Source of the DNA: Phoronis australis
Taxonomy: Eukaryota; Animalia; Phoronida
Direction: 5' to 3'
Assembly: GCA_002633005.1 (NCBI GenBank)
Contig: NMRA01000214.1
Location: 580,414-644,413 of the forward strand
Length of the DNA stretch: 64,000 nucleotides
Shown here: one piece after another, positions 6,501 to 12,500 of the stretch
Position numbering within the stretch: position 1 is the stretch's first letter
Layout of the letters: every line of letters starts with the position of its first letter
Program-made: the position numbers and the translations under genes
Notes under the pieces: model-generated
Database searches by the model: none
What the model was told of the DNA's origin: nothing
The model's input: the letters and a program-made list of their open reading frames with translations, nothing else

Positions 6501-9500
6501 TATGGTAACATTTGTATTGACTTGAAGATTTGTTTGGTGCATACCAGTTTTGTGCCCCCGTGTTGGTTACCTATTCTATCTTTCTGATGGAGTGCTTGTG
6601 AATGAAAGATTATATCACTTTATTTGGCGCAGCGTAGATGAAATGCGCAGTTCATCAACAAATCCTTCAGATCTTGGTGGTCGTTTGAAAAGGATAAACT
6701 TTTAGAAAAAGGCAAACTGTTGTTCACTAAATGTTTTAATTTTTCAGAAAGAAATCCCCTATCAACGTGTTGAGTCTGATGGTGTAGGAAGCTTACATCC
6801 CACGCGAGCAAACTGTGCTTATTTACGGGAGAAGTTCACACCTACTCGTTACAGCCACTTGAATGAAACAACCAATCGCAGCACTGCTGTTTCTTCTAAA
6901 TCTGGTGGTCTTGTAGAGGCAATTCAGAATTCTCTTTCTGCCAAGTTGACACCGCCAGATTTGACCCAGTCAGAGGCTTCAGCTTCAACATCAAGCTATG
7001 TTCCCAGACCTGTGTTGAATCCCAACAAGATGCTGCGCGACATAATAATGCATCATCAAAAACACCAAGACTTTGGTGGCAACCCCATTGATGGTGCTTC
7101 TTTTCCATCTACCTCATTGCCATCAGCGGCTGGGTTACCAGTTAACATGGATGACATAATCAGTCTTGCTAAGCAGCAGGAGGTGATGAGACAGGTTTTC
7201 CTGAATCTCAAACAGCAAGAGCCGCAGCAGCAGCAGCAACAGCACCTTCAAAGGCAAGTTCAACCGCTGCAAAAGGATACACCATCCTTGAATGAGTTGC
7301 AAACGATGCTGCAAAAACTCGGTGCAATTCAGAAAGAGAAGAGGCAACAGGAGCAAGTTGCTATCCAGCAGAGTTCGTCGACGAATGCCTCCTCTGAGAT
7401 GCTGCAGGGGTTTAGCCAGGTCCTCAGCCTGCTGCAAAAGCAGCAGGAGCAGTTGAACCAGCTGCAAAAGCTGCAGTCAGCCTCTGTCAGTGCAGTGAGT
7501 AGTGATCCTGCCAGTGACTCCGAGGTAGGAAAAAAGATTGCGAAGGAGGTTGTTAACAGAAAGACATCTGGTACATCACTTCCAGGTGAATTTATGCAAT
7601 GTTGGGATGCTTACCTGAGCAAAGCTAAAACTTCAACCGTTCAGCCGACTCTGTCAAAGCCTTCTTTCGGGTCAAAGTCCCCTAGTAATGAAGCAGTATC
7701 CTTGATCCAGTCAAACACGAAACTAGGTATTCTATTGACTCCACTGGATCTGTTCTGCACCCTTTTGAAAAAGGTGTCTCTGTCTGATCCCACTGTGGTT
7801 GGATTGATCATGGGTCAGTATGAACTGGCCAAGACCAAGCAGGATCAGGGCTGGATGACCGAAGCTCAACAGTTGGCACAACCAGTGTTTCAACAGATTT
7901 GGAAAGAGCAATTTGATAATGTAGGCTCTTTTTCTATGACCATTACGTCTATGCCACAAAAGGAGATAGTGCCGAGACCAGATGTTGTCGTGTCTCTGTC
8001 AAAAGGTGAAAGGTCAAAAGCCACCACATTTGGAGGTGGTGCTACAGGAGATCAGAATCTGAAAAGAGTAGGAGAACTAGTCCCACAAAATATTGTGCCC
8101 ACCAAAGTCCAGAGATTCACCGAACCTCAACCAGGTCATTTTGATGCCACCAATCCTATGCTCCCCGTGCATCAAGGTCATTTGCAAGTTTTGCCACCAA
8201 ATACTGTTGCTAATTTTCATGCGCCATACCGAGGCAACGCGGTAATGGGCCCAGGCAGTGGTCAACCTGCTGATGTTGGGAGCCACATTCCTCCCAGACA
8301 CATGTTCCAACCTGCTCAAAGTTTCGTAGCCACCCAGTTTGCTCCACCTCTGCAACCCGGAATGCACTCCTTTTCGGGTCAGCCTTTTACACAGGGCTCT
8401 AGTCCAGTCGTCACCCCTGTTGCTCCTCCTCATTTTGGTATGAACCCGTTTGCAGGACAACCACAGTGTTCTCCACATCCCCAGCGCTATCCTCTGCCCC
8501 AAGGTGGTGGGTTTGTGCCTCACGCTGCCCAAGATGCTGGTGCGGGTAGGGGTCCAATTCCTTATCAGATACAACCAAGGGATCCAAGAAGATTTCAAGC
8601 ACCTGCTGTTATCAAGAATCCTTCAGCAATACCGAGTAACACATTGCGGAATAAAAGCGCGGTGACTGTGGAAAAGCGTGCATCTACCTTGAAGTCCATT
8701 GAATTAGTCAAAGAACCACCAAAGCCTTCGAAACCCGTCACTACATCAACTAGTGCTTCCACACAACAATCTCCGCACAGTGCAAGTCAAAATACTGAAT
8801 CAAAACCAGTGACCGTGCTAAAGGCAGAGGCGAGCGAGTTATGTCCAGCAAAAGGTTGTTCAGTCCAAACACTCGACCTCCAAACCCATATTTGTAGCAG
8901 CCATTTACCTGATGTATACAGTCAAGGATTTGGAGTTACTGGAAATATAAAGGTGAATAAACAGCAAATTGAGGGCTTGAAGTTTCTTGCGCAGTCGTTA
9001 ACTGGCTCAGAAGGAAACTTGAAGAAGCTTGGAGAGTTTGTCAACTCTAGGAACCCATTCAAGTTTGAGTCAGGAATCAATGATATACCTACGGATTACC
9101 GGAAGCTGTTTACCCAAATCTGCCAACAACAGAAGTGGGCAAAACCGGACAAATTTATGGTAGCTCCTCTGAACTCGGCTGCCTGTCTGCTTCACTACAG
9201 GGTATTGCTGTTTCTTCTCGACTCCCTCTCTGAAGCAAGTCGTAAAGATTTTTTTGCTTTATGTAACCTTGATCTGAAGCGCCCAATGATGCTGACCACC
9301 TTGGAGACTCCTGTTGCCGAAAACTTGGTCATTGTTTTGAAGAATAATATGAATTGTCCGGTTCCGAAGTGTAAGTTTCATGGCAAATACAAAGATAGTG
9401 TGCGAAGGCACCTCGAGACGACACACATGCCCATGTTGTTTCGAGCAGAGACTCCAAAAGGTGACAAGGACACGCCTAGACTTCACAGGCTGAGGGAGAT

Positions 9501-12500
9501 GGCTTTACAAATTCTTGCACGGTTGCTGGGAGGAAAGCGCTTCTCTGTTGATGATCTTATGCGCTACGCTAACAACATCAGTAAGGGGGCTCAGCCAGGC
9601 AACCTCTCCGAGGAGTGGAAAGGCTTTATAAATAGGTTTTGCCGTTTTACTGGTCGTAAAGCACCTCATAACTTGAAGTCTGTCTTTCCAGTGACATGTG
9701 TCCCATTGCTGATGCACTTTACTGTTATGTTGCCCATTTTGTATTCCCTCAACATGTTCAAAAGGCAGTTATTTGCAAAAGTATGCCATCGCATTTATGG
9801 GGCCTCCAGAGCACCAGTTGTAGGCACAGGAACAGAATGTGAATTTATCGGGTGTGCAAGAAAGAGTCAGCAGATGAAATCGCACTGTATTCAGTATCAC
9901 CTTCCAATTGCATTGACACCAAAGGCAATTGCGACTAATGCCTCAAGAGCTGTAGAAGCTCTGAATGAACTACCGTCACTGTTACTTCAGAAAAAGGACT
10001 CAACAGTTCACGATTTGGTAAACTTTGTCAATGTCTACTGCGCTCTAAAATTTGAACCATTAAATGCCAAAGATCGTTTTTTGATGGCAGCGGTTTGTGA
10101 CCAACTCTCGCTTCCACAGCCAGAAAGCGGAGAGTTTACCATTGCCCCTGTGAATTCTCCAGCTGCGCTCGTACACTGGAGAGTAATGACATTTCTCATG
10201 AGTTTTTTAAGTGCCCAATCCTGTAAACTTTTCCAAGTGAAGTATGATAATGTGACTGAAAATGTTAAAAAAGTCGTTCAGGAAAATGTACCTTCACCAG
10301 ACATTAGCACTCGTGGCCAAAGTGAGAGACCTAATGAGTCGTCAAGCTCAGCAACTTACTGGAATGATCGACTAAAAAACTTGGTTGAGGAGGACAAGTT
10401 AATCGATGACAACTCTGTCAGCACTTCCTGCCCTATCCCGGGATGTCTTGTAGAGTCCAAGAATATTAGACCGCACTTTGCTGGACACATACCAAGGTTG
10501 TACTCTGTGTACGATTCAGAGTTTTATCAAACGAATAAGTCTGTTGTGAAGCGTCGCATATCTGGCTTACAGCGTCTGGCCTCATGGCTGTTGAAGCCTG
10601 GAGCCGATCTTGGCAATCTTGTTACGCTGGTTAATCAAGTTGGAAAGAAGAGTCTCTATGACGTGGCGATACCACACTCTCAGGTAACGTCCATGCGTCA
10701 GTTGTGCCGCCACGCTGGATGGCCAGTGCCAGCGAATTTCTCATTAAATCCCCTCAACTCTCGAGCATGTCTGATTCACTTCTTGCCCATGATGATACTT
10801 CTTCCAAGACTTAAATGCACACAGTTTGTGGAGTTCTACATTAACTATGATTTGACTGAAAAGTCCCCAATCATACTGACTGATAGAGTACCATCCACGC
10901 CAGAGAAGTCCACTGCCTGTAAGGAGTCTTCTAAATCTGCAGTCCCGTCCGGGACTTCTGGATCAAAGATTAAAGATAATTTTGTTGAAACGAAGACTGG
11001 TCGGCAGGGCATGGAGTCTGGCTTGGAAAGTAAGGCTTGTATTCAAAGTGGGGAGACCGACATTGCTNGATGGCTTTACAAATTCTTGCACGGTTGTTGG
11101 GAGGAAAGCGCTTCTCTGTTGATGATCTTATGCGCTACGCTAACAACATCAGTAAGGGGGCTCAGCCAGGCAACCTCACCGAGGAGTGGAAAGGCTTTAT
11201 AAATAGGTTTTGCCGTTTTACTGGTCGTAAAGCACCTCATAACTTGAAGTCTGTCTTTCCAGTGACATGTGTCCCATTGCTGATGCACTTTACTGTTATG
11301 TTGCCCATTTTATATTCCCTCAACATGTTCAAAAGGCAGTTATTCGCAAAAGTATGCCATCGCATTTATGGGGCCTCCAGAGCACCAGTCGTAGGCACAG
11401 GAACAGAATGTGAATTTATCGGGTGTGCAAGAAAGACTCAGCAGATGAAATCGCACTGTATTCAGTATCACCTTCCAATTGCATTGACACCAAAGGCGAT
11501 TGCGACTAATGCCTCAAGAGCTGTAGAAGCTCTGAATGAACTACCGTCACTGTTACTTCAGAAAAAGGACTCAACAGTTCACGATTTGGTAAACTTTGTC
11601 AACGTCTACTGCGCTCTAAAATTTGAACCATTAAATGCCAAAGATCGTTTTTTGATGGCAGCGGTTTGTGACCAACTCTCGCTTCCGCAGCCAGAAAGCG
11701 GAGAGTTTACCATTGCTCCTGTGAATTCTCCAGCTGCGCTCGTACACTGGAGAGTAATGACATTCCTCATGAGTTTTTTAAGTGCCCAATCCTGTAAACT
11801 TTTCCAAGTGAAGTATGATAATGTGACGGAAAATGTTAAAAAAGTCGTTCAGGAAAATGTACCTTCACCAGACATTAGCTCTCATGGCCAAAGTGAGATA
11901 CCTGATGAGTCGTCAAGCTCAGCAACTTACTGGAATGATCGACTAAAAAACTTGATTGAGGAGGACAAGTTAATCGATGATAGCTCTGTCAGCACTTCCT
12001 GCCCTATCCCGGGATGTCTTGTAGAGTCCAAGAATATGAGACCACACTTTGCTGGACACATACCAAGGTTGTACTCTGTGTATGATTCAGAGTTTTATCA
12101 AACGAATAAGTCTGTTGTGAAGCGTCGCCTATCTGGCTTACACCGTCTGGCCTCGTGGCTGTTGAAGCCTGGAGCCGATCTTGGCAATCTTGTTACGCTG
12201 GTTAATCAAGTTGGAAAGAAGAGTCTCTATGACGTGGCAATACCACACTCTCAGGTAACGTCCATGCGTCAGTTGTGCCGCCACGCTGGATGGCCAGTGC
12301 CAGAGAATTTCTCATTAAATCCCCTCAACTCTCAAGCATGTCTGATTCACTTCTTGCCCATGATGATTCTTCTTCCAAGACTTAAATGCACACAGTTTGT
12401 GGAGTTCTACATTAACTATGATTTGACTGAAAAGTCCCCAATCATACTGACTGATAGAGTACCATCCACGCCAGAGAAGTCCACTGCCTGTAAGGAGTCT

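Follow-up and report, generated by a model that had tools for sequence, protein, structure and literature searches.

The analysed window is a 64,000-nucleotide stretch of the genome of the phoronid Phoronis australis (GenBank assembly GCA_002633005.1, contig NMRA01000214.1, positions 580,414 to 644,413, forward strand). A long intronless open reading frame (ORF) lies, in the same orientation, inside intron 2 of a PRMT2 gene, a 14,646-nt GT-AG intron (2747-17392). Its predicted product consists of a helical N-terminal domain, four diverged copies of a finger-bearing module, an acidic linker and a TatD domain. By sequence comparison it is a homologue of the third ORF (ORF3) of TatD-type Ty3/Gypsy retrotransposons, from which it very probably derives. 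The parts are given below, with independent E-values (iE) from profile hidden Markov models (HMMs).

6706 to 14777, plus strand: intronless ORF with all parts, 2,166 codons from stop to stop with the duplicate counted once, 2,058 from the first ATG at 7030
7690 to 7902, plus strand: unnamed helical N-terminal domain, common to Gypsy ORF3 (element-only HMM, iE 1.3e-8)
8842 to 9264, plus strand: module 1, a C-x4-C...H-x4-H-L-P finger and a helical body ending in P-x-N-S...L-x-H-aromatic (iE 4.6e-24)
9355 to 9792, plus strand: module 2, the most diverged and most basic of the four, net charge +17 (iE 3.2e-15)
9838 to 10236, plus strand: module 3 (iE 7.4e-21)
10429 to 10836, plus strand: module 4 (iE 1.1e-25)
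11069 to 12638, plus strand: second haplotype of 9498-11067, following it after one N and most probably placed there as an assembly artefact
12639 to 13985, plus strand: acidic low-complexity linker of 449 aa, 25% Asp plus Glu
13986 to 14777, plus strand: TatD domain, a predicted pseudo-nuclease (PF01026, E 6e-22)

The sequences 9498-11067 and 11069-12638 span 1,570 bp and are 98% identical, with 31 differences, no gap and one N between them. In a DNA run (X1), which may be related to the source of the assembly and is not independent support, one contig of depth 36 spans 8231-11067 and holds 12 of the 31 second-copy alleles. Nothing was placed on 11078-12679, the depth is not doubled, and RNA depth is divided between the two copies. 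Together these observations fit two alleles set in tandem, and the duplicate 9498-12638 is most likely an artefact of assembly. A real tandem duplication was rejected on the undoubled depth and on the mixture of both copies' alleles in the X1 contig. Continuity of the ORF across the N at 11068 is presumed, because no listed piece bridges the junction, where a short repeat was skipped. DNA contig depth is 35-41 over most of the ORF, as on the unique flanks, and as regards near-identical copies the ORF is single-copy.

The four modules and their family

The first Cys residues of the four units lie at 8842, 9355, 9838 and 10429 in a single plus-strand frame, where a preliminary description of this DNA had placed four tandem copies of an uncharacterised metal-binding domain. 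Pairwise identity among these ~140-aa units is 20-33%. In whole-unit alignments all six pairs outscored shuffled sequences (0-1 of 2000 shuffles reached the score). With Cys and His masked, the pairs among units 1, 3 and 4 were still above the shuffles (z 9-17, 0 of 2000), and the three pairs with unit 2 were weak (25, 169 and 273 of 2000 shuffles reached the score). What establishes the membership of unit 2 is a hold-out HMM: made solely from six modules of metagenome loci, it recovered all four window units and matched unit 2 at iE 3.2e-15. The four units are true homologues, their resemblance is not limited to the Cys and His positions, and the fourfold multiplication in the window stands, as a feature separate from the assembly duplicate. 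The preliminary description also held the amplification to be old. The divergence of the units could reflect age or fast evolution, and a tree of 150 modules is of no help; the window units do not group there as one clade, which is still compatible with a single origin.

In Pfam all four units stayed below cut-off, the nearest approach being the match of one unit to zf-H2C2_5 (E 4.8e-4), and the whole module had nothing above cut-off in Pfam, PHROGs or PDB sequences. On this evidence it appears to be a real, undescribed domain. An AlphaFold model of unit 1 from four sequences (predicted local distance difference test, pLDDT, 82.9; predicted template modelling score, pTM, 0.80) suggests a small finger and eight helices; all four units modelled jointly from single sequence gave low confidence (pLDDT 38). 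Foldseek reached at best E 0.88 in BFVD and 1.5 in the PDB, and VIA-align against 48,161 chains a best Z of 3.6 (root-mean-square deviation 3.7, 73 aligned). The ESM Atlas, queried with unit 1, gave only ankyrin-type matches below 0.9, of low recognition. Three fold searches ended without a clear match, although this alone would not establish the fold as new.

When the four-unit profile, the four-unit region or the TatD region served as query, word-based protein searches returned no matches. This reflects a limit of sensitivity, because a full HMMER search with a ten-row profile then gave 695 protein clusters at E 0.001 or better, 294 of them at 1e-10. Viral contigs held no relative of the module and a single marginal TatD match (L009); a giant virus or phage origin was rejected. 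Family statistics come from the best 150 of the 695 clusters, three of the 150 being proteins of the metagenome loci themselves. TatD is present in 71 of the 150, and the module normally precedes it, as had been proposed: this holds for 54 of the 59 matches having at least 300 aa after the last module. Two or more modules occur in 6 of the 150. In 30 clusters that were looked up, the named members are Ostrea, Mytilus, Mercenaria and Pecten proteins titled uncharacterized, besides short contigs of symbiont metagenome-assembled genomes (MAGs) titled TatD hydrolase. The module-TatD proteins P0016, P0030, P0035, P0113 and P0184 are filed at NCBI as bacterial TatD hydrolases from Sedimenticola or Thiodiazotropha MAGs, on contigs of 3-12 kb; such symbiont-MAG contigs are probably animal host DNA.

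The four finger ligands are 97, 100, 100 and 99% conserved in 146 full modules, and all four window units have them. The preliminary description had added a further conserved Cys/His pair as part of the metal-binding domain. This did not hold up: in the 146 modules the Cys is kept in only 62% and the His in 83%, with Tyr or Phe as replacements, and a second metal site was rejected on this lower conservation against that of the finger ligands. The module is predicted to carry one C2H2 zinc finger on a helical body, with a single metal site. Also conserved are a Lys or Arg two residues ahead of the first His (95%), an Arg (72%), a Trp (92%), another Arg (81%) and the C-terminal motif P-x-N-S-x-x-x-L-x-H-W-R, whose columns were partly selected for because the query loci were picked by that motif.

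Modules of P0004 pair together in the module tree and so do those of P0005, suggesting separate duplications. P0008, P0011 and P0110, of 1,500-3,000 aa, have 3-5 diverged modules that alternate with ankyrin repeats, lack TatD and form one clade. The Mytilus proteins P0098, P0155, P0157-P0159 and P0161 are long NCBI gene models with one module, no TatD and PDCD6/ALG-2 sequence at the end. These ends are common to short PDCD6 isoforms, that of P0098 being shown by an EF-hand Pfam match only, and the models are possibly a second host-gene capture of the module.

Ty3/Gypsy ORF3 and the TatD active site

Eight metagenome loci were picked by a degenerate DNA motif from the C-terminal part of the module, and the four-unit HMM matches six of them (E 7e-26 to 5e-7). 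L006 holds only a TatD piece, and L008 was rejected as a module locus, being a chance motif match in a bacterial-type contig. All four module-bearing loci longer than 9 kb (L001, L002, L003 and L007) are Ty3/Gypsy elements. Their layout is a gag with a CCHC knuckle, a pol with protease, reverse transcriptase, RNase H and integrase in that order, and then an ORF3 consisting of one module followed by TatD. The association with retroelement ORFs that the preliminary description had suggested looking for is therefore present. The pol proteins of the four are mutually 42-60% identical, so this layout is not that of one recent family. Contig ends carry repeats of 76-90% in L003 and L007, a 99-nt exact terminal overlap in L001 and none in L002. 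A PHD finger follows the integrase at the pol C-termini of L001, L003 and L007; chromoviruses bear a chromodomain in that position.

The helical N-terminal domain of the window ORF is found also in ORF3 of L001, L003, L005 and L007. HMMs built from elements only match the window ORF at iE 1.3e-8 for this domain, 1e-15 to 1e-25 for the modules and 4e-61 for TatD, and the N-terminal domain, module and TatD stand in identical order in the window gene and in element ORF3. The window locus itself is not a Ty3/Gypsy element by the criteria of gag, pol and long terminal repeats (LTRs). Beside the ORF, 12 flanking frames read through with X gave no Pfam match to gag or pol, and tblastn with element gag/pol and searches with element DNA found nothing near the gene. 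Self-blastn at word size 7 revealed no repeat pair around the ORF that could be an LTR pair; very old LTRs would escape it. The Gypsy ORF3 origin, the altered TatD active site described next and the location in a PRMT2 intron go beyond the preliminary description. Since the module is tied to ORF3, many "uncharacterized" and "TatD hydrolase" annotations in invertebrates are probably element genes. A compact domain, predicted to fold well and present in at least 695 clusters, has neither a Pfam entry nor a clear structural match.

The window TatD scores 78.6 bits against a curated PF01026 cut-off of 27, and the ESM Atlas returns bacterial TatDs for it. Three residues of the metal site have changed: the second His of HxH is gone, the His of G-x-H-P is Asn and the metal-bridging Glu of G-E-x-G-L-D is Ser. 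Two His, Glu and Asp further on are retained. Five element TatDs keep all active-site residues. The lost Glu aligns with the G-E-V-G-L-D motif of TATDN3, and its replacement by Ala is described as inhibiting both activities in TATDN1 and TATDN3 (PMC10085689). The window TatD is predicted to be inactive as a nuclease. Of 57 matches with all eight site columns covered, 55 have one module, and in 46 of these the active site is intact; the other two have two modules, and each differs at five columns. P0072, one of the altered single-module rows, belongs to a cluster with a two-module member and shares its changes with the oyster-linked P0005, to which it has 59% identity. In a FastTree tree of TatD domains, from which 12 of 72 rows were dropped for low coverage, the window TatD belongs to a set of 19 rows (SH-like support 97) that includes the L007 ORF3 and P0004 and from which P0005 stands apart. 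P0007, labelled L003 in that tree, is only 38% identical to the L003 ORF3; the loci's own proteins are only P0006 (L007), P0034 (L005) and P0009 (L002).

Transcription, selection and probable host adoption

RNA came from three same-species runs of one study (X5, X6 and X7, in that order below), about a fifth of each being read, with a threshold of 3 reads for listing a joint. The PRMT2 exons and splice sites around the ORF are the following.

523 to 588, plus strand: host PRMT2 coding exon, start of the SH3 domain, spliced to 2561
2561 to 2746, plus strand: host PRMT2 exon preceding the gene-bearing intron (PRMT2 5ful match, E 5.7e-15)
6734 to 6747, plus strand: acceptor-like site whose phase agrees with both the ORF and the PRMT2 SH3 exon, seen in the sequence only
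15654 to 15665, plus strand: alternative splice donor after 15659, joined to 17393 (5, 3 and 0 reads)
17393 to 17482, plus strand: host PRMT2 exon following the intron, placed by splice joins

Further PRMT motifs lie downstream of the intron. The exon join 588-2561 was seen in 13, 5 and 3 reads and 2746-17393 in 2, 1 and 13. PRMT2 intron 1 has zero RNA depth at 1047-1693, and RNA coverage runs unbroken from the SH3 exon across the ORF, on the strand of the PRMT2 junction reads. ORF depth is ~5-13 in X5 and X6 and mostly 0.3-4 in X7. A covered stretch of this kind, with run-dependent depth, indicates that the ORF is part of a stable sense RNA whose level varies between samples. The donor at 15659, 880 nt past the ORF stop, feeds the PRMT2 exon that opens the catalytic part; the 24 open in-frame codons ahead of it contain no ATG. 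It is used more where the normal splice is low, and the insertion may therefore divert PRMT2 expression in some samples. High-copy repeats, mutually unrelated, flank the ORF on both sides in the same intron (4300-6270 and 15900-16950).

Haplotype differences in modules 2-4 comprise 14 silent and 7 replacement changes (pN/pS 0.21, p 4e-4), those in the linkers 2 silent and 8 replacement, and the whole duplicate has a pN/pS of 0.39. Elsewhere in the ORF, 34 listed single-nucleotide polymorphisms, a subset chosen by the tool, comprise 15 silent and 19 replacement changes (0.52) and no stop. The modules are under purifying selection within the species.

A lone ORF3 in a host intron, transcribed and with a nuclease predicted inactive, suggests that the host has adopted the gene. 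Of the features expected of a domesticated gene, single copy, an intact ORF (its continuity across the N being inferred) and transcription were all found, and a current host function is quite probable. The explanation preferred here, with somewhat better than even confidence, is that the gene is a host-domesticated ORF3 whose product is a likely multivalent nucleic-acid binder with a predicted inactive nuclease. Whether the modules would bind nucleic acid is evenly balanced. A Gypsy element would have inserted in the PRMT2 intron, or an ORF3 message would have been copied there; gag-pol and the LTRs would then have been lost, the module duplicated to four and TatD catalysis lost. In the elements, the single module may steer TatD to RNA, RNA:DNA hybrid or single-stranded DNA, and four modules on a flexible host chain would bind such substrates avidly without cutting. 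The host protein could possibly restrain the parent elements. A wider and decidedly speculative proposal is that marine invertebrates repeatedly took a Gypsy ORF3, multiplied its module, disabled its TatD and kept a host protein that binds and restrains parent-element RNA or cDNA. If true, transposon accessory nucleases would have a recurrent way of becoming host pseudo-nucleases with a new nucleic-acid-binding fold.

Several points weigh against the preferred explanation. First, the reads run on from the SH3 exon, which leaves the way in which the ORF is translated unexplained, and a message starting at the PRMT2 promoter would have 96 ATGs between the PRMT2 exon and the first ATG of the ORF. 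Second, the selection test rests on 31 differences, and the link to elements on four contigs chosen by one DNA motif. Third, although the bridging Glu is missing from 3 of 3 multi-module TatD proteins against 5 of 65 others (Fisher p 0.001), which favours the explanation, that test includes the window protein among the three and takes no account of relatedness. The branch of the window TatD is long, and a small ten-sequence tree left its placement unresolved. Finally, family modules are only mildly basic (median net charge +3), several family-conserved residues are altered in individual window units, and the module is also found beside ankyrin repeats and EF hands.

The same origin and domestication would apply if the module binds protein or self-associates, making the product a scaffold and not a nucleic-acid binder. 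Such a role would suit the 3-5 modules that stand with ankyrin repeats and without TatD in P0008, P0011 and P0110, the Mytilus gene models that join the module to PDCD6 EF hands, and the near-neutral net charge of unit 3; a single C2H2 finger, moreover, often binds protein. The usual partner of the module is nevertheless a nuclease (54 of 59), and its basic and aromatic residues are conserved, which makes the scaffold unlikely, if still a serious alternative. It is improbable that the ORF is a non-autonomous remnant, without host function, of a family that already had four modules, its RNA being read-through from the PRMT2 promoter. The unbroken RNA from the PRMT2 exon and the many upstream ATGs fit read-through, but ~6.5 kb are still open although LTRs, gag and pol left no trace, an excess of silent changes among present-day haplotype differences is confined to the modules, and the depth is single-copy. 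That the ORF is an alternative PRMT2 exon yielding an SH3-module-TatD fusion protein is very doubtful. In its favour, the SH3 exon donor at 2746 and the acceptor-like site at 6747 agree in phase, the two runs with high ORF depth have few reads of the 2746-17393 splice (2 and 1) and the run with low ORF depth has many (13), and the Mytilus PDCD6 models show a similar fusion. Against it, no 2746-6748 joint, to the 6747 acceptor, was listed at the 3-read threshold in about a fifth of each of the three runs, and RNA depth is undiminished upstream of that acceptor.

Elsewhere in the window, an element at 41480-45150 has inverted repeats of ~330 bp (85%) at its ends and, on the minus strand, decayed pieces that resemble coding sequence; three read-through frames gave no Pfam match. 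A foldback-like inverted repeat (~440 bp, 82%), which contains repeats of ~160 bp, lies at 37670-40139, and an open frame of 318 aa at 58020-58976 encodes an MFS transporter domain (PF07690, E 4e-18).

Relation to known systems

Titles and abstracts searched, which did not extend to Repbase and most subscription journals, included none dealing with a Gypsy clade that bears TatD, with the module or with a host gene of this kind, and no gene domesticated from an accessory nuclease ORF instead of from gag, pol or env was met in the literature searched. The closest described elements are the bdelloid LTR retrotransposons Juno and Vesta, with enzymatic ORF3s encoding a DEDDy 3'-5' exonuclease and a GDSL esterase; ORF3s are typically expressed from spliced messages (PMC5408684). 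The TatD-type elements likewise have, after gag and pol, a third ORF with a captured nuclease of putative role. Here, however, the nuclease is a TIM-barrel TatD and not DEDDy, two unnamed domains precede it, and the window copy lies outside an element. The word TatD does not occur in that paper or in a review (PMC6431247). Natural pairs, intact with one module and altered with several, make the role of enzymatic ORF3s testable.

Group II TatD nucleases (TATDN2, TATDN3, YcfH and YjjV; PF01026) have the HxH motif that the element TatDs also bear, and TatDs are described as cutting single-stranded DNA or abasic sites (PMC10085689). Human TATDN2 acts on R-loops, whose RNA it degrades (PMC10711561). 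Unlike an active Group II TatD, the window copy is without three metal-site residues. The finger of the module resembles classical C2H2 fingers (zf-H2C2_5, PF13909) in its C-x4-C...H-x3-4-H ligands, 97-100% conserved, and differs in falling below the Pfam cut-off and in being a single finger on a conserved ~110-aa helical body instead of a finger array.

Domesticated Ty3/Gypsy genes include Arc, PEG10, PNMA and GIN1, derived from gag, pol or env. Like them, the window gene has a single-copy, intronless coding region, has lost its LTRs and is under purifying selection; unlike them, it comes from an accessory nuclease ORF and has an amplified domain. For the putative function the nearest analogy may be Maelstrom and EXD1, inactive DEDD nucleases that retain RNA binding (as described in PMC5408684). 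Their fold is unrelated to that of the window protein, and they would serve only as a model of how a dead nuclease could work as a nucleic-acid binder.

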